From Candidatus Levyibacteriota bacterium (lineage in GTDB: Bacteria > Patescibacteriota > Microgenomatia > Levybacterales > UBA12049): a stretch of 64,000 nt of DNA. The stretch lies in assembly GCA_016214555.1 (NCBI GenBank), contig JACROF010000003.1, positions 930 to 64,929 of the forward strand, in the 5' to 3' direction. How positions within the stretch are numbered: the stretch's first letter is position 1; every line of letters starts with the position of its first letter. Positions 6,242-46,553 of this stretch are shown one piece after another. The position numbers were made by a program, and so were the translations under genes. The notes below the pieces were generated by a model. The model ran no database searches and was not told where the DNA came from. It saw nothing but the letters and a program-made list of their open reading frames with translations.

Positions 6242-7324
6242 TCAATAACCTAACAAATGGTACTTCCCTTGGTCCGATTTACGAAGAATTTTTTTGATCT
6301 CCATAACAGACAAAATGATATTCAACCTTGAAGGATCAAAAGAAATTCTTTTTACAAGCTCATCAAACGTTAACTCTTCATGAGCTAATAAAGTAATAAT
6401 AGTTTGCTCGTCCGGTACATCGCTTTTGAATAATGTATGTTTTATCATTGGTGATGCTTCACCTAAAGAACTCAAGATATCATCACCTGATGTGACAAGT
6501 ACAGCTCCCTTTTTAAGAAGCTTATTGGGTCCCTTTGAAAGACTGGATGTGATAGGACCAGGTATTGCAAAAACAGACCTTTTGTTAACAAAACAGTCCT
6601 CAGCAGTAATCAAAGCACCACTATCCTCTGCCCCTTCAGTGACAACTATTGCCTTTGATAGTCCAGCGATAATACGATTTCTTGATGGAAAAGAACCTTT
6701 AGTAGGCTGAGATCCCGGTGGGTATTCTGAAACAATCAAGCTGCCCTCTGACAAGATCCTTTCATAAATTTTTTCATTTTCTTTCGGAAAACAAAGATCT
6801 ACCCCGCATCCCAAAACAGCGATAGTTTTCCCTTTGTTCTCAAGCGCTGTCTGGTGAGCAATAGCGTCAACTCCCATCGCAAGACCAGAAATAATGCAAA
6901 AATTTGCCTCAACGAGCTCACGAGTCACCATTTCAGTCACCTGTCGACCATATGTCGTTATTTTTCTAGTTCCAACAACACCAAGAGTATTTTGTAACAA
7001 AAACAAATCAGGATTCCCTTTCCCAAAAAGCACAAAAGGTGGATTTGCACTCTGCCTTAGCAACTCAGGATAATCATTATCTGCTAATGTGACAAACCAT
7101 ATATTTTTTGCCTCAAGATTTTTAACGTAAGAATCAAGGGAGAAATTCTTTTTGAAAACAAAAAACTTTTGAGCTAGGGCAGGTTTTGCTATCGCTTCAA
7201 AACTACTCTCTGATGCATTCCAAGCATTTTCTGCTGAACCAAAAGCTTCCAGAAGCTGGCGAAATTTTTTAGGTCCAATTCCTGGAAAAAGTGAAAATCC
7301 TAACCAATATAATTTTTCTTGCAT
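6242..7324 (-). CDS. dprA: DNA processing protein DprA/Smf
   Basis: Rossmann-like DprA core (GLAMGVDAIAHQTAL, SEYPPGSQP) and a C-terminal winged helix. Confidence 0.8.
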   Translation of the reverse strand: MQEKLYWLGFSLFPGIGPKKFRQLLEAFGSAENAWNASESSFEAIAKPALAQKFFVFKKNFSLDSYVKNLEAKNIWFVTLADNDYPELLRQSANPPFVLFGKGNPDLFLLQNTLGVVGTRKITTYGRQVTEMVTRELVEANFCIISGLAMGVDAIAHQTALENKGKTIAVLGCGVDLCFPKENEKIYERILSEGSLIVSEYPPGSQPTKGSFPSRNRIIAGLSKAIVVTEGAEDSGALITAEDCFVNKRSVFAIPGPITSSLSKGPNKLLKKGAVLVTSGDDILSSLGEASPMIKHTLFKSDVPDEQTIITLLAHEELTFDELVKRISFDPSRLNIILSVMEIKKILRKSDQGKYHLLGY

Positions 7325-17603: not shown

Positions 17604-18041
17604 AGTTTTACTCTAGATAAAAACAATCAAAAATACTTTAGACAGAGCTTGGACTGATCTAGTAATAAATACCGCGATTTTCACGAGTAACGACTATACA
17701 CCTTGACACCACTATGGGAGAAACCTATACTGATCCAGCTCTTTGATACTTGAGTTGGTTGCATTTAATTTTTTCTACAAACCATTTAATTGAGGTAGTC
17801 CGATGGACATCGGACAACAAGGCGGTTTTCTTTATTCTCAAAAGATAAAGATAGCCTCCCTAATTTACACTTCGAGAAAAATGAGCAACCGTTAGCTCGG
17901 TATTCAAGGAGCAGAATTTATCTCCCATATTTTACAAACATACCTTCATTGATCTTATAGGTTGCTTTTGTTATACTCTTCTTCGATTGACCCAAAGTCA
18001 GTCGTGTACCTTAACGTTTCATCGCTCGGGAGGAGAATATC

Positions 18042-18473
18042 ATGAAAGCAGCACTTGAAAAGTTTCAGAAGAACGGATCGAGTCTTCTTTTTGTAGAATT
18101 GCTCTATATCTTTGATTTCTTTCCCTTCGATCCCGAGAGACCATACAGGGCGATTTTTTATGATCAAAGCAGCAACAGTCTTGAGCGAATCACTGGAATT
18201 TCCCGTGAAGAACTTTCAGAGATCATCGTCAACGATGGCTTTTATGAATCACCCAATTCCCATTCACCCAATTTATGGATCAATCTCCGCGCTCCATTTA
18301 TCGTAGGAAGCGAGATGCGTGATCCCATAACTGAGAAGGTAGTAATCTCTTTCTTTCAGGGATTTGGCCACCGAAATGGACTTGTAATTGAACCAAGCGG
18401 CATCCCTGATCCACGTGAGTTTCACGCAAAAATTAGTCAGGCCAGGGATAAGTGGCAAGGAATTATTACGTGA
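18042..18473 (+). CDS. Hypothetical protein
   Basis: ORF with a GGAGAA RBS-like element upstream, followed by a terminator at 18493..18522. Confidence 0.4.
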   Translation: MKAALEKFQKNGSSLLFVELLYIFDFFPFDPERPYRAIFYDQSSNSLERITGISREELSEIIVNDGFYESPNSHSPNLWINLRAPFIVGSEMRDPITEKVVISFFQGFGHRNGLVIEPSGIPDPREFHAKISQARDKWQGIIT

Positions 18474-18492
18474 GTGATATGAACATTTTTTC

Positions 18493-18522
18493 GGGGGAGA
18501 AATCATTCTCCCCCATTTTTTT
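18493..18522 (+). terminator. Rho-independent terminator
   Basis: Stem GGGGGAGAA/TTCTCCCCC with an ATCA loop, followed by T7. Confidence 0.7.
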
Positions 18523-18534
18523 ACTCGTTAGCCC

Positions 18535-18564
18535 TTGCTCGTAGGATCGCTTCTCTGCTAAAAT
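18535..18564 (+). promoter_or_regulatory. Candidate sigma70 promoter for the tRNA cluster
   Basis: TTGCTC - 18 nt - TAAAAT, about 17 nt upstream of the first tRNA. Confidence 0.4.
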
Positions 18565-18614
18565 GAAGCTCTAAACTTTAGCCGACTTAGCTCAGTGGTA
18601 GAGCAGTTGTTTTG

Positions 18615-18718
18615 CCTGCCCGCCAGATGCCGAGATAGCTCAGTGGTAGAGCAGTTGTTTTGTAAACATCAGGTCCGGGGTTCAAATCCCCGTCTCGGCT
18701 CCAGACATGGCAGGCGGG
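18615..18718 (+). other. Intervening element inside tRNA-Thr: 14-nt and 15-nt GC-rich complementary arms flanking a complete tRNA
   Basis: CCTGCCCGCCAGAT and GACATGGCAGGCGGG form a roughly 11-bp helix with one mismatch, abutting anticodon-loop positions 35 and 36. Confidence 0.55.
18629..18703 (+). tRNA. tRNA-Thr(UGU), complete copy nested inside the split tRNA-Thr
   Basis: Acceptor GCCGAGA/TCTCGGC, D arm identical to the outer gene, anticodon loop UUUGUAA, T arm CGGGG/CCCCG, CCA encoded. Confidence 0.75.
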
Positions 18719-18760
18719 TAAACATCAGGTCGTCGGTTCAAATCCGACAGTCGGCTCCAG

Positions 18761-18847
18761 GCTGGGGTGGCAGAGTAGCAATTGCACGTGGCTGTAGACC
18801 ACGCGGTCGAAAGGCCTCCGGGGGTGCAAGTCCCTCCTCCAGCACCA
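18761..18847 (+). tRNA. tRNA-Tyr(GUA), type II with a long variable arm
   Basis: Acceptor GCTGGGG/CTCCAGC, anticodon stem CGTGG/CCACG with loop CUGUAGA, variable-arm stem GGTC/GGCC, CCA encoded. The T loop is the non-canonical TGCAAGT. Confidence 0.7.
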
Positions 18848-19035
18848 CGTCAGATTTTTGATATCTGCTTTCGTTCCGATTTAGTCGGGACTTCAGCTTT
18901 CTATCAAATCTTCCTTGTCAAATTTCAAACAAATTTGATGTGCTCAAAATCCAAAGGATTTTGAAGAGGAGAAACCGACGATAGGTTGAAATCCGAAAAA
19001 AGTTCGGATGAAAACAAGAAGTCGAGCTTCGACGA

Positions 19036-19107
19036 GCCCAAATGGCTCAGTGGTAGAGCGAGTTCTTGGTAAGAACTAGGTCGCGGGTCCGATTCCCGCT
19101 TTGGGCT
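19036..19107 (+). tRNA. tRNA-Thr(GGU)
   Basis: Acceptor GCCCAAA/TTTGGGC, anticodon stem AGTTC/GAACT with loop UUGGUAA, T arm GCGGG-TCCGATT-CCCGC. Confidence 0.8.
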
Positions 19108-19115
19108 CAGAGATC

Positions 19116-19144
19116 TTTTATTTCTGCTTCAAATCGTGTATACT
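19116..19144 (+). promoter_or_regulatory. Candidate extended -10 promoter for rpmG
   Basis: TGTATACT (TGnTATAcT) at 19137..19144, with an AGGAG RBS at 19152..19156. Confidence 0.35.
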
Positions 19145-19163
19145 ATCGCTCTAGGAGTTTTTT

Positions 19164-19340
19164 ATGCCAAAAAAAGGAGAACATCGCATCATTATTGGAC
19201 TCGTTTGTTCGGTTTGCAAAAACCGCAATTACGTCTCGCAAAAAAACAAGCTTGAGACTCCAGACAAGCTAAAACTTAACAAATTCTGCAAACACTGTCA
19301 AAAGGTAACAGAGCACAAAGAAAACGAGAAACTCAAATAA
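19164..19340 (+). CDS. rpmG: Ribosomal protein L33 (58 aa; below the ORF-track length cutoff)
   Basis: The translation [58 protein letters not shown] has the L33 zinc-ribbon pattern. Confidence 0.85.
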
Positions 19341-19457
19341 GTATTTAGTATCTTGTATAAAGAATCAAGCATACTATACTCTTATATTTCCACCTCAAAT
19401 CTCATCATTCATTCCTTTATACTTAATACTAAATACTGTATACTTTATACCTGAATT

Positions 19458-19529
19458 AGGGGTGTAGTGAAATGGCTATCACAGCAGTCTCCAAAACTGC
19501 TTTTCACAGTTCGAATCTGTGCGCCCCTG
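19458..19529 (+). tRNA. tRNA-Trp(CCA)
   Basis: Acceptor AGGGGTG/CGCCCCT, anticodon stem GCAGT/ACTGC with loop CUCCAAA, T arm CACAG-TTCGAAT-CTGTG. Sits in the conserved rpmG-trnW-secE position. Confidence 0.8.
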
Positions 19530-19580
19530 CTACATTCAGTTCACTTCTCCACAATTATATAAACAAATTGTGGTTCGTTC

Positions 19581-19904
19581 ATGAACGTGGCTAGCCACGT
19601 GAATAGAAGTAGAAGATGGATGTGGCCTGCCATCATGTTTTACTTCTACATCCTCAGAAGTTTAAAAAATCAAAAACTTTATCTTGGCTATTCCTCTGAC
19701 TTAAAAGAAAGAATAAAATCTCACAATAATGGCAAAAATAATGCCACTAAACCAAATATTCCCTATGAATTAATTTACTATTCTGCATTTAAAAGTGAAA
19801 AAGACGCTATTAATTGTGAGCAATATTTCAAAACCACTGCTGGGTGGAAACGAATTCATAAAATGCTTGAAAACACATTAAAAGATACTCAGTCTCTGAT
19901 ATAA
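19581..19904 (+). CDS. GIY-YIG nuclease-domain protein
   Basis: FYFYILRS...KLYLGYSSDLKERIKSHN matches the GIY-YIG core. The start is probably an internal Met. Confidence 0.65.
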   Translation: MNVASHVNRSRRWMWPAIMFYFYILRSLKNQKLYLGYSSDLKERIKSHNNGKNNATKPNIPYELIYYSAFKSEKDAINCEQYFKTTAGWKRIHKMLENTLKDTQSLI

Positions 19905-19911
19905 TTTCCTC

Positions 19912-20346
19912 ATGATTAAAATACCATATTACGAGACTTCTTATTTCTCCTTCTCCAACTTCTCATCCCACTCTATAAAAATAGATGGAGTTTTATATCC
20001 TACCGTTGAACATGCTTTTCATGCTGCGAAATTCGATAATGAAAAAATAAAGGAAGAAATCAAAAGCGCGGGCAGTCCGCTGAAGGCATTTGAGATTGGT
20101 AAGAAGTATAAACCACAAAGGAGAAGCAACTGGGATGAGACAAAAGTGTCTGTACTTCAAAAAATCATTGCTGAAAAAGTGAAACAACACGACGAAGTCA
20201 GAAAAGCATTACTCGCAACTGGTAATGAGGAGATCATAGAAGATAACCCACTTGATGATTTCTGGGGAAATGGTAAAGACGGAAACGGACAAAATCATAT
20301 GGGTAAAATCTTAATGAGGATCAGAAATGAACTACAATTTCAGTAA
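19912..20346 (+). CDS. NADAR (YbiA/DUF1768)-family protein
   Basis: FSNFS...YPTVEHAFHAAKF...EDNPLDDFWGNGKDGNGQNHMGKILMRIR matches the NADAR signature. Confidence 0.7.
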   Translation: MIKIPYYETSYFSFSNFSSHSIKIDGVLYPTVEHAFHAAKFDNEKIKEEIKSAGSPLKAFEIGKKYKPQRRSNWDETKVSVLQKIIAEKVKQHDEVRKALLATGNEEIIEDNPLDDFWGNGKDGNGQNHMGKILMRIRNELQFQ

Positions 20347-20429
20347 TTTTTGTAAATAATACGTTCCAACATATCCACATAGACCTATCTTCTTGTTGCA
20401 TATAAAAATATAAAATCTACAATATCACC

Positions 20430-20957
20430 ATGGTTATTTCTCCATATCAACAAACACTTACCCATAGCTGCTTGGCAGCTTGTTTTTTGATGCTTCAAGA
20501 AAAACAGTTTACAAAGTTTGATGAACAGGAACTGGCTCTTAAAGGGTCAAGCAGAAAATATCCTTTCTATGTTGTGGGTATTCCTGAAGAGTTTGTCAAA
20601 AAGTATGATGGCAACATTAAAATTTATGCAGATAATAATTTTTTTGCTACAACACTTCAAAAAGCATTTATAGGCAATAAAAAAATACATGTTACTCACA
20701 AAAAGATAGATATGGCTTTTATCACTGAATTACTTAATGAAAAACCACTTATTTGTCATATTGATAACCATGCATTAGGTGATTATTCTCATGTATCACA
20801 TTTCATAATTCTAGAGAAAGCAACAAAAGAATTTGTAACTATCATTGACCCCTGGAGTGGAAAGAAAAAGAAAATTAGCAAATCTACACTGACTGAGGCA
20901 ATATCTGATTTAAAAAATCATGTAAAAATGTGTCCCCTTCTATTCTCAGTTGAATAA
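20430..20957 (+). CDS. Peptidase C39-like cysteine protease domain protein (standalone)
   Basis: A Gln/Cys motif (QQTLTHSCLAACFLML), a His motif (SHFIIL) and an Asp motif (IIDPW), in C39 order. Confidence 0.65.
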   Translation: MVISPYQQTLTHSCLAACFLMLQEKQFTKFDEQELALKGSSRKYPFYVVGIPEEFVKKYDGNIKIYADNNFFATTLQKAFIGNKKIHVTHKKIDMAFITELLNEKPLICHIDNHALGDYSHVSHFIILEKATKEFVTIIDPWSGKKKKISKSTLTEAISDLKNHVKMCPLLFSVE

Positions 20958-23861: not shown

Positions 23862-24275
23862 ATGTATCTTAAAATAAAAGCGCTCATGTACGTTGTTGGG
23901 TATCCTTTGTTCTATCTGCTCACAAGAGGTCTTTTGCACATCAACAAGATTGAGACAGACCTACCTCACGACAGTATTGAGGTTGCTCTGAAAACATTTG
24001 TTTATTGGTCTATTCTCTTCGCGGTGATACCAGTTAGTTTCATGTTATTTCTTGGACTAATGGAAGCGCCTCCACCAATAGCTGTCATAGCTTTTATACC
24101 AGGCTTGATGCTGATTGGCCTTACCTATGCAGCAATGCCTACAACCGTTGGCATTGGTGGCCTAAGCTTTGCTTGTTTGTTGAGCCTCATTCTTGTGGTC
24201 ATAACACACCCATTCGAGCGATGCATGGTTGAAATCGAGTTCCCTAGCTCAGAAAGGTCTTTACACGAAAGATAA
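23862..24275 (+). CDS. Small polytopic membrane protein
   Basis: An AAAGGAGGAG RBS precedes the ATG at 23862 (the ORF track starts at 23769). Four hydrophobic helices. Confidence 0.45.
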   Translation: MYLKIKALMYVVGYPLFYLLTRGLLHINKIETDLPHDSIEVALKTFVYWSILFAVIPVSFMLFLGLMEAPPPIAVIAFIPGLMLIGLTYAAMPTTVGIGGLSFACLLSLILVVITHPFERCMVEIEFPSSERSLHER

Positions 24276-24290
24276 CTATATCCACTCATG

Positions 24291-24318
24291 CGGTGGCCAT
24301 CAGGCCACCGCTTTTTTT
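24291..24318 (+). terminator. Rho-independent terminator
   Basis: CGGTGGCC-ATCA-GGCCACCG followed by T7. Confidence 0.75.
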
Positions 24319-24750
24319 GTTGTGATCACATTAATACTCTCTTAACATGCTCGTCTCTACCTACAATGATAAATATTCCCTATTATCACTATAGGTTTAC
24401 TTTTTAAGACTTCTAGTGTATAATCCATACGCTTTACAGGTTAGTACAGAACAATTGCGTTTTGCTACTTTCTAACGTAAATAGTTCTTTAACAACTTGA
24501 GATTCAAATTTTAAGAATTTATCTTTATTTCTATCGATATGAAGCTAATTTCGGGTCGATGGCGCTTTGCTCATGGTATCGTGCGTAAAGTGCCGTCGAT
24601 CAGGAAGAATCAGCGCGATTCAATCCTGCATTGTAATGGCTTTGTTTGAAATGGAGAAAGGCCTGTAGACATATGCAAGGAGGTGCACAACCCTAACAAA
24701 CAGGTAAATTCTTTCGTCGCCAAACTTTACCCAAAAAAGGAGAAGAATCG

Positions 24751-26076
24751 ATGTCAGATCAGACAGGAGCCCTTCAGATTCCCGTTGTCGGAACCGGCAC
24801 TCTAGCAGTTCCACCGCAACCACAGGGATCAGCCAGCTCCGCCCTCATGCAGACGGGAAATACAGCAACAGAGCGAAAGCAGCTCATCTGCAAGGACATC
24901 CTCAGGGCATTAAGCCCCGAAAGATTCCAACAAGCCACGGTCGTTGCCCAAGCCGACTACCCCAATATGCTGGTAAACAGCCAGATCGGTATGGTATACG
25001 GCTCTGAAGCGATCGCCGCCATGAACGCACTCGTCAGTTCGATGCGCACCAGAGTCACTCCGGTAGAAATACCGCAGCTTGACAAGATGATGGCTGCGAT
25101 CAACGATGAGATGCGCAGCTTCCGCGGCCACTACGACACCAGCAAGGACCCCGAACTTCGCGAGAAATACGAAAAAGCGATGGGCGGGATCAAGAAGCTA
25201 TTCAACCGAGGCAAGACCTACATGGAAATGCTCCATGAAGATATGCAATCCTCGGTCGAAAGGCTCGATGGCATCAAGGCAGAGCTACTTGCTAAGCAAG
25301 CTCAGCTCATACGAAATGTCGGCCTCTACGACGAGCTGTATCTGGCAAACGAACAGGAAATCGTCAACGTCATCGAAGCCATCGCACGGATGGAGATGAT
25401 TTGCGATTTGGCAGCTGCAGAAGCAGCTGCAATCGTTGGCGACCCCAACGATCCCGTCAATCACGCCAAGTTCGAGCGGAAACGTTTCATTGCAATATTT
25501 GCCAACAACCTGACGCTCAGGCTCACCGAATTCAAAAACCGCCTATTCGCCGGCTATGCGATGTCACCACAGATCACTCAGTCTCGAGACATCGATACTG
25601 CGATGGCGATGAAACTTTATTCTGTCTGCGATACCACCATCCCTCTCATCGAGTCAACCATGCTTCGATGGCAGATGATGGTCCAGGCAGAACTCGCAGC
25701 CGAAGCCGCAAACGCAGTCGCAAGACTCACCAACGAGGTACTCGTCGCGAATTTCGAAGCCGGAGCGGATATCCTGCCTCGAGTCGCCCAGGCGATTCAA
25801 ACGCCGACGATAACCCCCGAGACCATTTTGGCACTCGGTACAAGTATCGAGAAGCAGACTCAAGGCATCATCGATGCCTACGCTGCCGGACGTGAGCGAC
25901 GCGCAGCAGTCGATGATGCGATCGTAACTACGTACCGTGTCATCCAAAATGCTACGGCCAAGGTGAGCGACGAAGTCGTTGATCAACTGCTTGCGCAAGC
26001 CAACGCACCGCTCCCAGCTGTCATCACTGCGAAGCTTCCCGAGCTTCCAGCAGGTATTGAATCTCAAGCTTCCTAG
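24751..26076 (+). CDS. TelA-like (toxic anion resistance / KlaB family) protein
   Basis: GC is about 55%, well above the window average. An N-terminal Q-x-G...LSS element and a central GLYDELYLANEQEI region resemble B. subtilis TelA (compare DMLDEMYEKNKDYY). Long helical architecture and a strong AAGGAG RBS. Confidence 0.45.
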   Translation: MSDQTGALQIPVVGTGTLAVPPQPQGSASSALMQTGNTATERKQLICKDILRALSPERFQQATVVAQADYPNMLVNSQIGMVYGSEAIAAMNALVSSMRTRVTPVEIPQLDKMMAAINDEMRSFRGHYDTSKDPELREKYEKAMGGIKKLFNRGKTYMEMLHEDMQSSVERLDGIKAELLAKQAQLIRNVGLYDELYLANEQEIVNVIEAIARMEMICDLAAAEAAAIVGDPNDPVNHAKFERKRFIAIFANNLTLRLTEFKNRLFAGYAMSPQITQSRDIDTAMAMKLYSVCDTTIPLIESTMLRWQMMVQAELAAEAANAVARLTNEVLVANFEAGADILPRVAQAIQTPTITPETILALGTSIEKQTQGIIDAYAAGRERRAAVDDAIVTTYRVIQNATAKVSDEVVDQLLAQANAPLPAVITAKLPELPAGIESQAS

Positions 26077-41788: not shown

Positions 41789-42439
41789 TTACCAAACAAA
41801 CATGGAAGCGGGACCAGTAAAGCTAAAAGGCGGATCGCCTGGTAGCTTGAGTTTTTCTTTGAGAAGCTTTACATACTCTTCGTATGTGAGATATGTTACC
41901 TCGATGCTTATGCCATAGACCTCAACTTCACAAATACGCTTGATTTCCTGTTTTAGATCTATGAGGTGTAAGACACCAAGGGTCTCGTAATATGACTCAA
42001 GAGCAGCCTCAAGAATCGTATGCTGACGAGAAAGTGCTGCTTCGTTGACATGAGGCTTAAACGTGAAAAGAATCTTCCCTGAGTAGGGATTTTTACTCTC
42101 GCCACTTGATCGCTTGTCTTTCATAAGCATCCCAGGAGTAATCACAACTATATCTCCCGGGGTGACACTCTCTCTCTCAAAAATCACAATGCCATTATGT
42201 CTTACCTCAACACTACAAGTCTTGAGCGTTGGATTGAAAAGCTCAATTTCTGGAACCTCTTGATCTCCTACAATAATTGCAGGCATCTGACTCGGAGGCT
42301 TGTCTGGATCAAGACAAAGAATTGCTACTTCCTCACCCCCAACCGTCGCACCTATGGTGATGAGCCGCTGACAGAGAGCCAGAAATGGCAATCCATTTGC
42401 CTTAAGATATTCACCCTGTTCATAAGGAGACATCAACAT
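41789..42439 (-). CDS. Paralog 4
   Basis: The start is trimmed to the ATG at 42437..42439, which has a GGAGG RBS; the ORF-track start (42451) is a TTG. Carries the family motifs PGDIVVITPGML and a C-terminal GPASMFVW. Confidence 0.6.
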   Translation of the reverse strand: MLMSPYEQGEYLKANGLPFLALCQRLITIGATVGGEEVAILCLDPDKPPSQMPAIIVGDQEVPEIELFNPTLKTCSVEVRHNGIVIFERESVTPGDIVVITPGMLMKDKRSSGESKNPYSGKILFTFKPHVNEAALSRQHTILEAALESYYETLGVLHLIDLKQEIKRICEVEVYGISIEVTYLTYEEYVKLLKEKLKLPGDPPFSFTGPASMFVW

Positions 42440-42463
42440 GATTTCCTCCAATACGCTGCTATA

Positions 42464-42484
42464 TCAGATCGACAATCGACCTGA
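42464..42484 (-). promoter_or_regulatory. Second copy of the palindromic operator-like element
   Basis: TCAGATCGA-CAA-TCGACCTGA, preceded (minus-strand sense) by GCTCATTTACAATG (-10-like). Confidence 0.45.
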
Positions 42485-42550
42485 ATCATTGTAAATGAGC
42501 TTGGAAAGTATAACATAATATTACTATAAGTTAAAGTTTAGATAAAAAAC

Positions 42551-42605
42551 CAAAAAAAATCCCGACCCCCTTTCGAGGGCCGGGTGCGTCCCGATATATC
42601 GGGAC
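42551..42605 (-). terminator. Tandem hairpin terminator
   Basis: A 10-bp stem with a GAAA tetraloop (CCCGGCCCTC-GAAA-GGGGGTCGGG on the minus strand) followed by T8, plus the perfect palindrome GTCCCGATA|TATCGGGAC. Confidence 0.7.
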
Positions 42606-42616
42606 AGAAATGCAAG

Positions 42617-42838
42617 TTAGTCGTCGTCGCCGAAATCATCGCCATCATGGCGATCCGGCTGCCAAGCCCCAGAGCGCGGCTTGTTGCGATACAACCAAGC
42701 GTTTCTGCAGACTTCAAGCTGAAGAGAGTCACCGCGTTGACGAAGCTGCCTGAGGGCATCTTCGTGCGCGCTCCTTGACATCCGAATGTAATCATCCTCT
42801 GTGAGAGAATGACCACTGTTGAACGAATGCAAGTCCAT
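42617..42838 (-). CDS. Small protein with an acidic C-terminal tail; GC-rich (about 60%)
   Basis: ATG with an AAGGGGGAAG RBS and a strong terminator. No recognisable family. Confidence 0.4.
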   Translation of the reverse strand: MDLHSFNSGHSLTEDDYIRMSRSAHEDALRQLRQRGDSLQLEVCRNAWLYRNKPRSGAWQPDRHDGDDFGDDD

Positions 42839-42872
42839 ACTTCCCCCTTTTTGGGCTAGATCGACACGGAGA

Positions 42873-43070
42873 CTACGGCTTCATCGCCGCCTCAGCGGCA
42901 CGCTGGTAGTTTGGAAACCAGATCGTACCGGCGTAGCTTTCCAAAGCCGTTTTGATCAGGCTCGGATTGCTCCGGAAAGTCTCAACAAGAGAGGCGAATG
43001 CCTCGCTTGGTTTCATTCGCCTGGTCCTTCTTCCAGACGTGCGACATGAAAAACCTTTATCGATCCTCAT
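42873..43070 (-). CDS. Possible small ORF in the GC-rich segment
   Basis: ORF only. Overlapping ORFs on both strands make the coding assignment here unreliable. Confidence 0.2.
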   Translation of the reverse strand: MRIDKGFSCRTSGRRTRRMKPSEAFASLVETFRSNPSLIKTALESYAGTIWFPNYQRAAEAAMKP

Positions 43071-43118
43071 ATCCCCTCCTGCTTTTTACTTGCACCGTTG
43101 CAAGCCTGCAAAAAGAAG

Positions 43119-43148
43119 AGCCAGGGAGCGCAGAAGCGCTCCCTGGCT
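43119..43148 (-). terminator. Perfect 13-bp hairpin
   Basis: AGCCAGGGAGCGC-AGAA-GCGCTCCCTGGCT with a T-rich tract on the minus strand. Confidence 0.4.
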
Positions 43149-43863
43149 GTAACCGCTACTTGCGGCCGGAAGACTGCGACGTCTGAGACTGCGGCGAACT
43201 ACCGCTCGCTGCCGCATTTGCTGCGGCAAGCATTCGCCCTTCGGCGATTCGATCGAGCCTGATCTGTCCGCGTCCGATTGGACGCAGGCCAAACGGCGAC
43301 TGATCCCGAACGGAATGATAGCTCTGTCCAGACATATGTCCTCCTCGTCACGCTGCAGTGGACTCCCAGTGGAGACCACGCCCTCAAGACTACTGTGCTA
43401 GCCACGAAGTTTGTTGCTCCGTGAGCCTACCCAAAATAGCCTCATTACTCCCTGAAAAGAATATGTCTGCGTTTGGGTCATTAAAAACCCAGTCGCGAAA
43501 TGAATCGCGCATCACAGACTCCGCCTCATCCGGCGGTGGCAATCCTCTTATCGTGACAATATTGTCTAAAAAAAGAATGTTTTGCCCTCCTTTCTGGACA
43601 AAGAGAAAGCGTTGGTGTCGTTGGTCAGCAGGTGAACAATAGACCTTTCGGACTTATTGATGCAAAAAATTATGCTGAGCTGACCAACGACCACAAAACC
43701 TGAACCATCAGGACTTATGGTCGCTGATCAGACAAACCAACAGACGACTAATTTGTAAAAGAACTCTTATGAATTCCTTATTTCATAACTCTCTAAAGAG
43801 AGCTTTGAAATAAGGGCGGTCCGACGAATCGGACACGCCCAAGAATAGAGCTGAAGCCTTGTA

Positions 43864-44358
43864 TCAGCAATGAATCACAACGACACTCTCAGTGGTGAGT
43901 AGCCTGATAGGCTCCCGAAGCTGATGAGCTGCCGTGGTAACGATGAACGTCACCTGACGAACATGCTTTGTTACCCGAATCTCAGGCAAAACACGCTCGT
44001 TTTCCAAAAGCAAGACGTCTTCAGTGACCGTCACGGTGAACACCGCGACCTCATGGTTGCTCTCGACTCGAATCGGAATTCCGTTGAACACCCTGGGTTC
44101 TCGCGGTCGAGCATAGCCCGTATCAGGAATGATACCAGAGCCGTGCTTGTCAATTACGACGAAGACCGATTGGTCTCGAACATTCCAAACGCCAATCGCG
44201 TGCAGCTGATCCCTAGGGACCGTGACTAGATAGATTTCCTCGTTAGCATTGTTTGGATCATCGATGGGAATCATCGCTCTCGGCGATCCTTCGCCTTGAG
44301 CAAAAAAGATTCCAATCGAGACTCCGTTATCAGAACGATTACTAAACCCGGAGGACAT
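43864..44358 (-). CDS. Hypothetical protein in the GC-rich segment
   Basis: ORF followed on the minus strand by a roughly 10-bp hairpin at about 43811..43838. Confidence 0.35.
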   Translation of the reverse strand: MSSGFSNRSDNGVSIGIFFAQGEGSPRAMIPIDDPNNANEEIYLVTVPRDQLHAIGVWNVRDQSVFVVIDKHGSGIIPDTGYARPREPRVFNGIPIRVESNHEVAVFTVTVTEDVLLLENERVLPEIRVTKHVRQVTFIVTTAAHQLREPIRLLTTESVVVIHC

Positions 44359-44604
44359 ACCAGTGCTCCCTTCGTTGCTACAAACAAGGTGGCTAACGCC
44401 CTTTTGGACAGATCAAAAGGCCATTAGCCATATATTCAGAACTATTAATGTGCAATTACAGCACAAGCTGTAAATAGGTCGTAAGTATAGCATATTTTAT
44501 ATCTAAAATCAACTATAGGATGTTTGCCGAGAGGCATTTGAGCTCACTTCCAAAGGGAAATGAAGTCCAAATGACCTCCCGGCTTGCCTCATTTGAGGCT
44601 GCTA

Positions 44605-45459
44605 CTAAAAGGTAGCATGAGAAAAAAATGCGCCATCAGCGCCATCAAGATTGTTGTGAGCGTGAGTTCGTCGCAACTTTAACACTTTGCCTACATAGGC
44701 GATTTGTTGCCGCACGAGCAAAAAGGTATGTAGGTCCTTACAAGAACTCAGACCTTTCTGTGCAGCCGCACTGAAGACCCTAAGATCTGCGGTGGTGCGA
44801 CCTCTCAAGCAAAGCTTTTCCTGATCGCTCAGCTCAGGAAGACGCCCTCCCTTCAGGTGGTAAAGGAAAGCCTGTGCTCCAAGACTTGAGGCATACACGA
44901 TCGTATTCGATCGTTGAGGCTGATCCACCACACCATCAGCAATCAACTCGCCAATGAGGTCGTTGGTTGTGAGGCCAAGGTACGAACGCGCATTGGCCTC
45001 AGAGCCCAAGATAGCACAAAGTCGGGAATTCCGACCTTCAATACCTTCCAGGCTCTCGCTCTGGAGAAGACGAACTATCTCCCCCGGATACGAAATGAGG
45101 TTGCAAAAACCAAGACTATAGCTACCAAGGTCTCCAAGGGAGACCTGAGAGCATCGATCCGGGCTGCAAAGAGCAAAACGATGTGTTCCCTTTTGAGGAA
45201 CGTATGTCGGCGAACATGGTGCACTTGCCGACGATTGCTTCCCCAACGCTGCGCTATTTTGGAAGCACAAAGCTGCGCCCCCAGATTTTTTCACGTCAAC
45301 TATGACAACCGGACTTCGACGAGGATTTGACACCTCCCATACCGAAAGCCCGTTGAGTGTTTCATGGTGTTTTGCCTCCCCTGATGCGAACCGAATGTCT
45401 ACTCCGGGTACCAAACAGTTCATTTTTCCACCTTTCAGGACGGATAAGCCTCCCGTCAA
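44605..45459 (-). CDS. Hypothetical protein in the GC-rich segment
   Basis: 284-aa ORF at about 55% GC with no recognisable motif. Confidence 0.35.
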   Translation of the reverse strand: MTGGLSVLKGGKMNCLVPGVDIRFASGEAKHHETLNGLSVWEVSNPRRSPVVIVDVKKSGGAALCFQNSAALGKQSSASAPCSPTYVPQKGTHRFALCSPDRCSQVSLGDLGSYSLGFCNLISYPGEIVRLLQSESLEGIEGRNSRLCAILGSEANARSYLGLTTNDLIGELIADGVVDQPQRSNTIVYASSLGAQAFLYHLKGGRLPELSDQEKLCLRGRTTADLRVFSAAAQKGLSSCKDLHTFLLVRQQIAYVGKVLKLRRTHAHNNLDGADGAFFSHATF

Positions 45460-45671
45460 ACAGTCTAGCTCAGAAATTTCTTTTTCTGAAAACTCCTTTC
45501 TCTATAAAAGTGAGCTGACTGTCGACTCGCTCTCTACAAAATAAAGAGGGAGCCAACAACCAGATACACAAAACTGTTCTCAAGGCATTCTTTTTGTATT
45601 AATGTGCTAAAGGATAGTGATTGTAAAACAAAAATCAAGCCTACGTCAACAGATGCCTTGTGTGAGACACA

Positions 45672-46553
45672 CTAAACAGTCCTGTGATATTCGGCTTGAT
45701 GATCTTTAATAATGCTATCAACATCGGGATTGTTCATATGAGTTTTGATAAATGCCAATGTCTCTTTCGGATTTTGAGTGTTCACAAAAACATTAGTTCC
45801 TACTTCAAATCCACCTAACGTCTTTTGACGAGGAATGATCCTTAGATACCAATCTCCTCCCGGATAAATATAAAAATTATAAGGAAAATCGCTATTGTAA
45901 CGAAGGTTAAAAATAGTAATAAGTGATGAGAGGACACCTGCAGCATCTGAAAGCTCGTCATCCGTGACCTCTCCAAATAATCTACCCGACTTTTTAGGAG
46001 CGATCCACACTTCATCTGGCCATACCGAATCAGATGGACAAAAAACGCTAAAATGCTGTGACTGATAACCGGTCGGCATATCATGTACCACTGTTTGAAG
46101 TCGAGGAATATCTAAATAAACCTTTTCAGGAATCACTGCAATTTGCGTATGAGAATGAGGAATACTCTCTCCTGCTTTTTCTCCGTGATTGTGAAAAATA
46201 TATACCTGACCTGCGTGACTATGCTCATTATAGCGATGGCGATATGTCTGGAGTATTCGCTGTGTATGCTCAACGGGAAAAGCGTCAAAGGACACATGGT
46301 GATCTGGAGTATCAATCACTAATTCATGAATTGGCGCAAAAGGAAATTTATTGGGAACAACGCGTACTTCCCATGCATCATCTCCAGTCTTCCCTCCAAT
46401 CCGATAGAGTTCTGTTTCATTACTTTCCCTACCAGGACAAAAAGGACACGCAGGCTCAGTTCCGTTGGCGACATCGGGTCTTTTTGCTCTTCTAGGGGCT
46501 GAGATCACCCATTTTTTAGATTGCTGATTTTTTAGAAATTGAAACTCGTCCAT
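45672..46553 (-). CDS. galT: Galactose-1-phosphate uridylyltransferase (HIT superfamily)
   Basis: CPFCPG zinc motif and the HxH active site IPHSHTQI. Confidence 0.75.
   Translation of the reverse strand: MDEFQFLKNQQSKKWVISAPRRAKRPDVANGTEPACPFCPGRESNETELYRIGGKTGDDAWEVRVVPNKFPFAPIHELVIDTPDHHVSFDAFPVEHTQRILQTYRHRYNEHSHAGQVYIFHNHGEKAGESIPHSHTQIAVIPEKVYLDIPRLQTVVHDMPTGYQSQHFSVFCPSDSVWPDEVWIAPKKSGRLFGEVTDDELSDAAGVLSSLITIFNLRYNSDFPYNFYIYPGGDWYLRIIPRQKTLGGFEVGTNVFVNTQNPKETLAFIKTHMNNPDVDSIIKDHQAEYHRTV

Follow-up and report, generated by a model that had tools for sequence, protein, structure and literature searches.

Transfer RNA genes of Patescibacteria can be interrupted by group I introns at position 35/36 of the anticodon loop; these introns are self-splicing, measure roughly 200 nt or more, are detectable with covariance models, and their splicing was shown (Nakagawa et al. 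2026, PMC13011429). The locus described here occupies positions 18581-18759 of a 64-kb stretch of DNA (the window) from a metagenome-assembled genome (MAG) of Candidatus Levybacteria, within the candidate phyla radiation (CPR, or Patescibacteria). It consists of a tRNA-Thr(UGU) gene split in its anticodon loop by an insert that carries a second, complete tRNA-Thr(UGU) gene between two complementary arms. The phylum, the kind of host gene and the anticodon-loop site are the same as those of the group I introns, and in both cases standard tRNA finders miss the interrupted gene. However, the insert has only 29 nt of non-tRNA sequence, shows no ribozyme signal and carries a whole tRNA. The other type of interrupted tRNA gene to be considered is that of archaea and eukaryotes, spliced by proteins. 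Its hallmark, the bulge-helix-bulge (BHB), has two 3-nt bulges on opposite strands with 4 bp between them and the splice sites in the bulges, and is processed by EndA and an RtcB-type ligase. In split tRNAs of the Nanoarchaeum type, the halves are encoded at separate loci behind their own promoters and are joined in trans. We know of no bacterial splicing endonuclease. As in archaeal BHB introns, the Nanoarchaeum split tRNAs and the "transposed" introns of Thermoproteales, a GC-rich helix unites the halves of the gene, and, as in archaeal introns, related short hairpin inserts are found in different tRNA genes and loops. Unlike the archaeal systems, the nested arrangement has no BHB geometry, its halves are contiguous, the outer halves decay when the whole class is considered, and the insert is not removed but brings a replacement gene.

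The locus is composed of a 34-nt 5' half, a 14-nt arm, a complete tRNA-Thr(UGU) with its CCA, a 15-nt arm and a 41-nt 3' half (Table 1). The insert accounts for 104 nt (18615-18718), 75 of which are tRNA. Once it is removed, the remaining 75 nt are identified by ARAGORN as tRNA-Thr(tgt), with 7/7 acceptor pairs, 5/5 T-stem pairs and all stems intact. As a proxy score, the uninterrupted tRNA of one relative (L125; L-numbers are labels of the compared loci or contigs), which is one compensated pair away from the joined outer sequence, obtained 70.2 bits with Rfam. The compensatory differences between the inner and outer copies are restricted to the acceptor and T stems, and the U.U at 28-42 is present in both. 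The original prediction, which had proposed a perfect outer tRNA, a complete inner one and this distribution of differences, was correct in these respects. It had also described arms that pair over about 11 bp with one mismatch. The arms are indeed complementary, but the helix has 10 positions, of which 8 are Watson-Crick pairs, one is G.U and one C.A. The outermost pair joins the two terminal bases of the insert, and the 10-bp imperfect terminal inverted repeat (18615-18624 and 18709-18718) is located at the exact ends of the insert. Composition-preserving shuffles equalled the arm pairing in 1.8% of cases if every register was allowed, and in 0.4% if the pairing had to be anchored at the two junctions. 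The insert interrupts the gene at 35|36 or, owing to an ambiguity of one G, 34|35, and the junctions TTTTG|CCTG and CGGG|TAAA have no common direct repeat. The promoter block of the window aligns with that preceding the uninterrupted tRNA-Thr of L002. A consensus promoter scanner identified zero promoter-like sites within 18581-18759, so none in the insert. The open reading frame (ORF) immediately upstream of the locus is identical to NCBI protein HZC02_01510.

Table 1. Coordinates and sequences of the nested tRNA-Thr(UGU) locus and adjacent features in the window.
Feature	Position	Strand	Sequence or evidence
Terminator of upstream ORF	18493..18514		
Promoter for whole nested unit	18535..18564	+	-35-like TTGCTC (18535-18540), 18-nt spacer, extended -10 TGCTAAAAT (18556-18564)
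5' half of resident outer (GACT-type) tRNA-Thr(UGU), positions 1-35	18581..18614	+	GCCGACTTAGCTCAGTGGTAGAGCAGTTGTTTTG
Left arm	18615..18628	+	CCTGCCCGCCAGAT, comprising inverted repeat CCTGCCCGCC (18615-18624) and 4-nt spacer AGAT
Inner (GAGA-type) tRNA-Thr(UGU), CCA encoded, presumed working gene	18629..18703	+	ARAGORN; Rfam tRNA 71.6 bits
Right arm	18704..18718	+	GACATGGCAGGCGGG, comprising 5-nt spacer GACAT and inverted repeat GGCAGGCGGG (18709-18718)
3' half of resident outer tRNA-Thr(UGU), positions 36-76 including CCA	18719..18759	+	TAAACATC...AGTCGGCTCCA
tRNA-Tyr, one base after outer CCA	18761-18847		ARAGORN
Junction expected if the outer halves were joined (GACT-type body)			...GUUGUUUUG|UAAACAUC...
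Expected sequence of the empty site (GACT body)			...GTTGTTTTGTAAACATC...

The neighbourhood (def-fmt-rpmB-M50 ... thr-tyr-thr-rpmG-trp) was aligned among Levybacteria relatives. Relatives that have this locus carry, at the place of the outer gene, one uninterrupted tRNA-Thr(UGU) of either of two allelic forms. The GACT allele (acceptor GCCGACT/AGTCGGC) is uninterrupted in L125-127, L130 and L132, and the GAGA allele (acceptor GCCGAGA/TCTCGGC, with a different T stem) is uninterrupted in L001-003 and L131. The tRNA of L130, whose M50 protease is 78% identical to that of the window, coincides with the joined outer gene at 74/75 positions, the difference being one D-loop base in the 5' part. The single complete tRNA-Thr(UGU) of L002 is identical to the inner tRNA at 75/75 positions, and the partial copies in L001 and L003 agree with it up to the contig ends (M50 identity in L001-003, 90%). 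M50 protease identities for the other loci are 76% (L132), about 64% (L125-127) and 78% (L131). The M50 protease of L129 is 89% identical, and its tRNA has a GACT-type 5' end, where the contig stops after 31 nt. When the filled site in the window is compared with the empty site in L130 or L125, the two differ by a 104-nt insertion that cleanly separates G35 from U36, without target-site duplication or loss of bases. Both alleles exist uninterrupted at the same locus in relatives; therefore, the compensatory differences are older than the insertion and cannot show that the outer copy is presently maintained; a gene interrupted only a moment ago would have them too. The original prediction had taken those differences as proof of maintenance and had suggested comparing the homologous loci, a comparison that undercuts its own argument. 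L129 and L003 have in common an unusual 46-nt leader but different tRNA alleles. Because a GACT-type tRNA follows the L003-like leader in L129, the two alleles swap among near relatives. The leader between the promoter and tRNA-Thr is 12 nt long in L002 (4040-4070) and 46 nt long, with a small hairpin, in L003 (1700-1760) and L129 (5130-5210), despite the identical neighbour protein. The bases flanking tRNA-Thr at these loci are an exchange hot spot.

The explanation that we consider likely is that a palindrome-bounded cassette with the GAGA allele entered the resident GACT gene by a recent, precise DNA-level insertion, so that the inner copy works and the outer halves are a fresh relic. The cassette, composed of tRNA-Thr(UGU) and its 10-bp imperfect inverted repeat, would have entered the anticodon loop at 35|36 without duplication or loss, and the whole unit would be transcribed from the resident gene's own promoter. 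In the transcript, the arms would pair with each other, as would the outer halves, so that folding of the inner sequence would be unhindered. The inner tRNA, which would now be the decoder, would then be freed by RNase P and the 3'-end machinery; release by such ordinary 5' and 3' processing, already suggested in the original prediction, is reasonable. The outer halves would be a very young, still perfect but non-functional GACT relic. Their perfection is explained by the recency of the insertion, since intact copies of both alleles are found in relatives. Slippage between the GCCGA... and ...CGGCTCCA repeats could later delete the relics, completing a seamless allele replacement. Such a deletion would be consistent with the fact that close relatives whose flanks are the same carry GACT in some cases and GAGA in others.

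The arrangement is not unique to the window. A scan of 185,579 genomes, one per species, for two copies of the D-arm sequence GCTCAGTGGTAGAGC 20-50 nt apart, a spacing impossible for ordinary tandem tRNAs, produced 67 loci with the close double-D-arm pattern. The record titles of 42 of these are CPR (Saccharibacteria, the Levy-, Curtiss-, Roizman-, Woese- and Parcubacteria groups, Kazan and WWE3), and the remaining titles include 10 uncultured Gammaproteobacteria and 6 Ignavibacteriota/Bacteroidota; one locus is on the closed chromosome CP066689.1. ARAGORN in intron mode, also used as a screen, gave mostly spurious calls. The recurring design is a 5' half, an arm, a complete tRNA of the same amino-acid identity, the complementary arm and a 3' half. 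The arm helix adjoins the inner tRNA in 42 of the 62 loci that were parsed, mostly at 0-6 nt, and complementary flanks were detected around 61 of the 172 tRNAs in the fetched loci vs 1.2% of shuffled controls. Nested Arg, Leu, Gly and Trp genes have their inserts in the T-loop or D-loop instead of the anticodon loop. Relic halves accumulate hairpin-only inserts, and nests of two to four levels were found in L029, L052, L066, L071 and L125. The insertion is nucleotide-exact in about a dozen loci besides that of the window (L024, L037, L053, L056, L067, L071 and others). Many junctions in other arm families do not allow a 7-nt anticodon loop to be rebuilt. Nested tRNA genes are not described in the full-text literature searched, which yielded the group I introns of Patescibacteria.

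A few arm families recur across classes and tRNA identities. The left-arm 10-mer CCTGCCCGCC, which occurs once in the 64-kb window, also borders nested tRNAs in L011 and L053 and, with one substitution, in L024; the right-arm core GCAGGCGGG is common to these loci and the window, and the family as a whole (CCTGCCCGCC/GGCAGGCGGG) borders nested Thr and Val genes in them. Further families are CCCCGTTAGA/TCTAACGGGG and CCCCGCACC/GGTGCGGGG, and the same families are found at several tRNAs within single loci of L042, L052 and L069. Hairpins of the window arm family that lack a tRNA are present in L053 at ~976-1020 (CCCGCCTGC...GCGGGCAGG) and in L060 at ~454-510 (CCTGTCCGCC...GCAGGCGGG). In the outer tRNA-Phe of L020, L022, L025 and L030, an isolated CTGAAAA anticodon loop lies between two inserts, one with the inner tRNA and the other a cargo-less hairpin of the same arm family. 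Several species of Ignavibacteriota/Bacteroidota (among L008, L013, L034, L045, L065 and L058) have a nested tRNA-Thr(CGU) with common arms (TCCCGATAATTTC...), the outer copy of which is without positions 27-35 and so cannot be rebuilt. In L058, the same hairpin is closed by a GAAA loop, with no tRNA inside.

Within the operon to which the window locus belongs, the tRNA-Trp gene of some relatives is nested as well (L125, 4960-5300; L126, 1140-1350; L127, 1300-1540). Its arms are 17 bp long (GAACTTATAGCACATGC), the outer 3' half has decayed, the left part of the insert has an extra long hairpin, and L125 has two identical levels. In the window, tRNA-Trp (19458-19530) is uninterrupted and its acceptor is that of the relatives' outer copy. 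L126 also has, at ~690-745, a 5' relic of tRNA-Thr(GGU) with a GC hairpin in its D-loop right before an intact tRNA-Thr(GGU).

The window locus is probably one case of a recurrent process in CPR/Patescibacteria and, to a small extent, in Ignavibacteriota/Bacteroidota, in which palindrome-bounded inserts would land in the apical loops (D, anticodon and T) of tRNA genes. A hit on an essential single-copy tRNA gene would be survivable only if the insert provided a replacement of the same identity. The match between inner and outer identities would then follow because only same-identity inserts survive, and no homology targeting is needed. Repeated hits would produce the Russian-doll nests. A broader proposal, which we hold only tentatively, is that CPR and a few other lineages harbour a new class of tiny, non-autonomous, palindrome-bounded cassettes that enter tRNA apical loops without target duplication and replace essential tRNAs of the same identity.

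The alternative that survives best, although it is unlikely, is that the outer halves and the arms are kept at the RNA level as a structured leader and trailer, serving as a processing stem, an insulator or a maturation guide and not as a tRNA. The position of the arm helix close to the inner tRNA in most loci favours this idea, as does the precursor itself, the whole 179 nt of which are predicted to fold into a clean nested double cloverleaf (-72.9 kcal/mol, z = -5.5). The same can be said of the nested Thr(CGU) locus, which has the same arms in several Ignavibacteriota/Bacteroidota species, and of some arm variants that change on both sides jointly. The pattern of mismatches argues in the opposite direction. 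Acceptor, anticodon and T stems were scored across the class. In the inner tRNAs, 1.3% of the stem positions are non-paired and the ratio of G.U to A.C is 35:1, which is the signature of selection on RNA pairing. In the outer halves, even though the search for them favoured well-paired candidates, 8.7% are non-paired and the ratio is 39:16 (Fisher p = 8e-13 for non-pairs and p = 0.002 for G.U:A.C, outer vs inner). The outer halves have also gathered truncations and extra hairpins in the D, anticodon and T loops. The arm helices show no wobble bias (14 G.U vs 13 A.C mismatches; p = 2e-5 against the inner stems of the same loci), a balance predicted by neutral decay of an initially perfect DNA inverted repeat and not by a selected RNA helix. 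Furthermore, the arms are found in both orientations: CCTGCCCGCC...GGCAGGCGGG in four loci (window, L011, L053 and L024) and its exact reverse complement, CCCGCCTGCC...GGCGGGCAGG, in L056, L067 and the tRNA-Gly of L030, as well as in L006 and L064 with a degenerate right arm. Both orientations come naturally to a double-stranded DNA element but fit an RNA motif poorly. Finally, close relatives have neither arms nor outer halves at the same locus.

A second alternative, the one favoured in the original prediction, is that the outer tRNA is functional: after release of the inner tRNA, the pieces would be held together by the GC helix, trimmed and ligated by an RtcB-type enzyme into a second tRNA-Thr(UGU), through a bacterial protein-dependent splicing or split-tRNA pathway. 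Protein-dependent tRNA splicing would then be seen in bacteria for the first time. The flawless joined sequence, the Rfam score of its uninterrupted relative, the nucleotide-exact insertion seen here and in about a dozen other loci, and the arms that bring both junctions together are all in agreement with such a pathway. The evidence nonetheless opposes it, and we regard it as very improbable. There is no BHB, and both junctions are at the base of one helix. By inspection, the motif is absent in the window and in Val loci with 37|38 insertions, and forcing alternative registers in the window and L024, with pairing again judged by inspection, gave no 3-4-3 geometry. A split tRNA was also discarded, since both halves follow one promoter on the same strand, with 104 nt between them. 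The archaeal analogy drawn in the original prediction did not hold in its defining features. RNase P and RNase Z would leave tails of 14 and 15 nt on the halves, and an extra precise endonuclease would be needed; therefore, ligation alone could not rebuild the anticodon loop. The scan of 20 window ORFs against Pfam detected no RtcB or EndA, which is weak evidence as it concerns 64 kb only. The product would be redundant with the anticodon already supplied by the inner copy, outer halves decay at the class level with many junctions that could not be restored, and the perfection of the outer copy here is accounted for by its recency.

It is hardly credible that the insert descends from a group I intron at 35/36 that lost its ribozyme core and gained a tRNA. 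The site is the one reported for Patescibacteria group I introns (PMC13011429), and with the one-base shift (U34|G...G|G35) the 5' exon ends in U and the insert in G. However, no Intron_gpI match was found at E <= 1 in 18000-20000, and none at the gathering score in 18 related loci; these Rfam searches detected only tRNAs and one 16S rRNA. The non-tRNA part of the insert amounts to 29 nt only, the last base of the 5' exon at other loci is A, G or C, and the arms occur in both orientations.

Equally remote is an assembly or binning artefact that merged two strain alleles. The source is a MAG and both alleles circulate among relatives, but all four junctions are reproduced without a difference in an independent Logan contig (L004; k=31) assembled from run SRR12113407, which is probably the sample of the MAG itself. 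The stretches identical between both tRNA copies measure 27 and 13 nt, both shorter than k=31; the breakpoints lie outside the repeats shared by the copies, and the arm sequences are in neither tRNA allele. The same architecture is present in about 40 MAGs produced with different assemblers and in the closed chromosome mentioned above. We consider the nested arrangement confirmed. An exact-protein look-up for further strains of the same species returned the same sample only.

Several points weigh against a recent cassette insertion. The outer copy in the window is without any decay; it is taken for a relic because of the class-level pattern and because the inner copy makes it redundant. The closest sampled relatives, L001-003, natively carry the inner-type allele, and the direction of events in the window lineage is for this reason settled only in part. 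Paired changes with complementarity kept in the arms of L044 (GCCCG/CGGGC) and L052 (TTAAA/TTTAA) could reflect some selection on pairing. A mobile agent was also sought. All-against-all clustering of 867 ORFs from 68 loci gave housekeeping families only and no linked recombinase. The fetched loci contained no arm2-arm1 circle junction, few stand-alone empty type A hairpins, and no antisense inner tRNA or insertion. In IMG/VR, the nested D-arm pattern gave 1 match, which was armless; the type A arm pattern gave 52, all attributable to chance, in contigs of 65% G+C and with no tRNA between the arms; and the type B arm pattern gave 0. Among annotated phages and plasmids, coverage of the 179 nt did not exceed 45% in any record. 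A terminator-like pattern of A-run, GC-stem and T-run is seen in many type B and C arms. The notion that the arms derive from an intrinsic terminator cut at its apex was considered as an idea only and put aside, as the window arms do not fit it and no intact donor hairpin was found.

The proposed cassette can be compared with other DNA that enters tRNA genes. Islands and prophages that integrate in tRNA genes have kilobases of DNA, encode an integrase, generate direct repeats and displace only the 3' fragment of the gene. K. Williams is said to have described anticodon-loop and T-loop sublocations of integration in tRNA genes. The nested loci are similar to islands and prophages in the anticodon- and T-loop targets, in the repair of the damage by the insert's own sequence and in the tRNA fragments left by serial events. 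They differ in that the inserts have ~100 nt, no room for an ORF, inverted repeats and a whole tRNA, and leave 5' and 3' relics that are nested. Miniature inverted-repeat transposable elements (MITEs), repetitive extragenic palindromes and bacterial interspersed mosaic elements (REP/BIME) and Correia-type elements share with them the small size, the terminal inverted repeats, the two orientations, the shared families and the empty, hairpin-only copies. Unlike MITEs, the nested inserts have no target-site duplication, their targets are structural (tRNA apical loops), and their cargo is a functional tRNA that matches the disrupted gene. No partner transposase was identified for these cassettes. 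The recursive Russian-doll layout, resulting from repeated invasion of the same kind of site, is reminiscent of twintrons; these are sequentially spliced, whereas the nested tRNA genes show no sign of RNA-level removal.

If a class of such cassettes exists, tRNA alleles could turn over rapidly, leaving Russian-doll relics behind. This offers a testable route by which an essential single-copy tRNA gene may be swapped for a foreign allele without a lethal intermediate, and it fits the GACT/GAGA alternation. It would also point to an activity directed at tRNA-gene hairpin loops in bacteria that have fewer genes than any others known, and would bear on the long-standing debate over the attraction of mobile DNA to tRNA genes and over the origin of interrupted or split ones. 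There is a practical consequence for annotation. Standard tRNA finders report the inner gene only or, in intron mode, miscall a tRNA-Val; therefore, relic halves and nested layers in CPR genomes go unseen, and they could be taken for introns or split genes. In the window, a long-intron ARAGORN run miscalled 18581-18759 as a tRNA-Val(gac) with a 90-nt intron, a result that could mislead automated annotation.

Other features of the window were recorded. Right after tRNA-Trp, the region 19581-20957 encodes a 107-aa stand-alone GIY-YIG nuclease domain protein, a NADAR-domain protein and a C39-like peptidase ORF. It constitutes a small accessory island by the tRNA cluster, and L130-132 have other genes at this place. 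DprA (DNA-processing protein A), the single-strand DNA loader of natural transformation, is encoded at 6242-7324 on the minus strand; it is common in bacteria and bears on the possible entry of foreign tRNA alleles. The regions 24000-26000 and 42000-46000 have a G+C content of 0.46-0.49 vs about 0.38 elsewhere and may be acquired; the first of them holds a TelA-family ORF (24751-26076).

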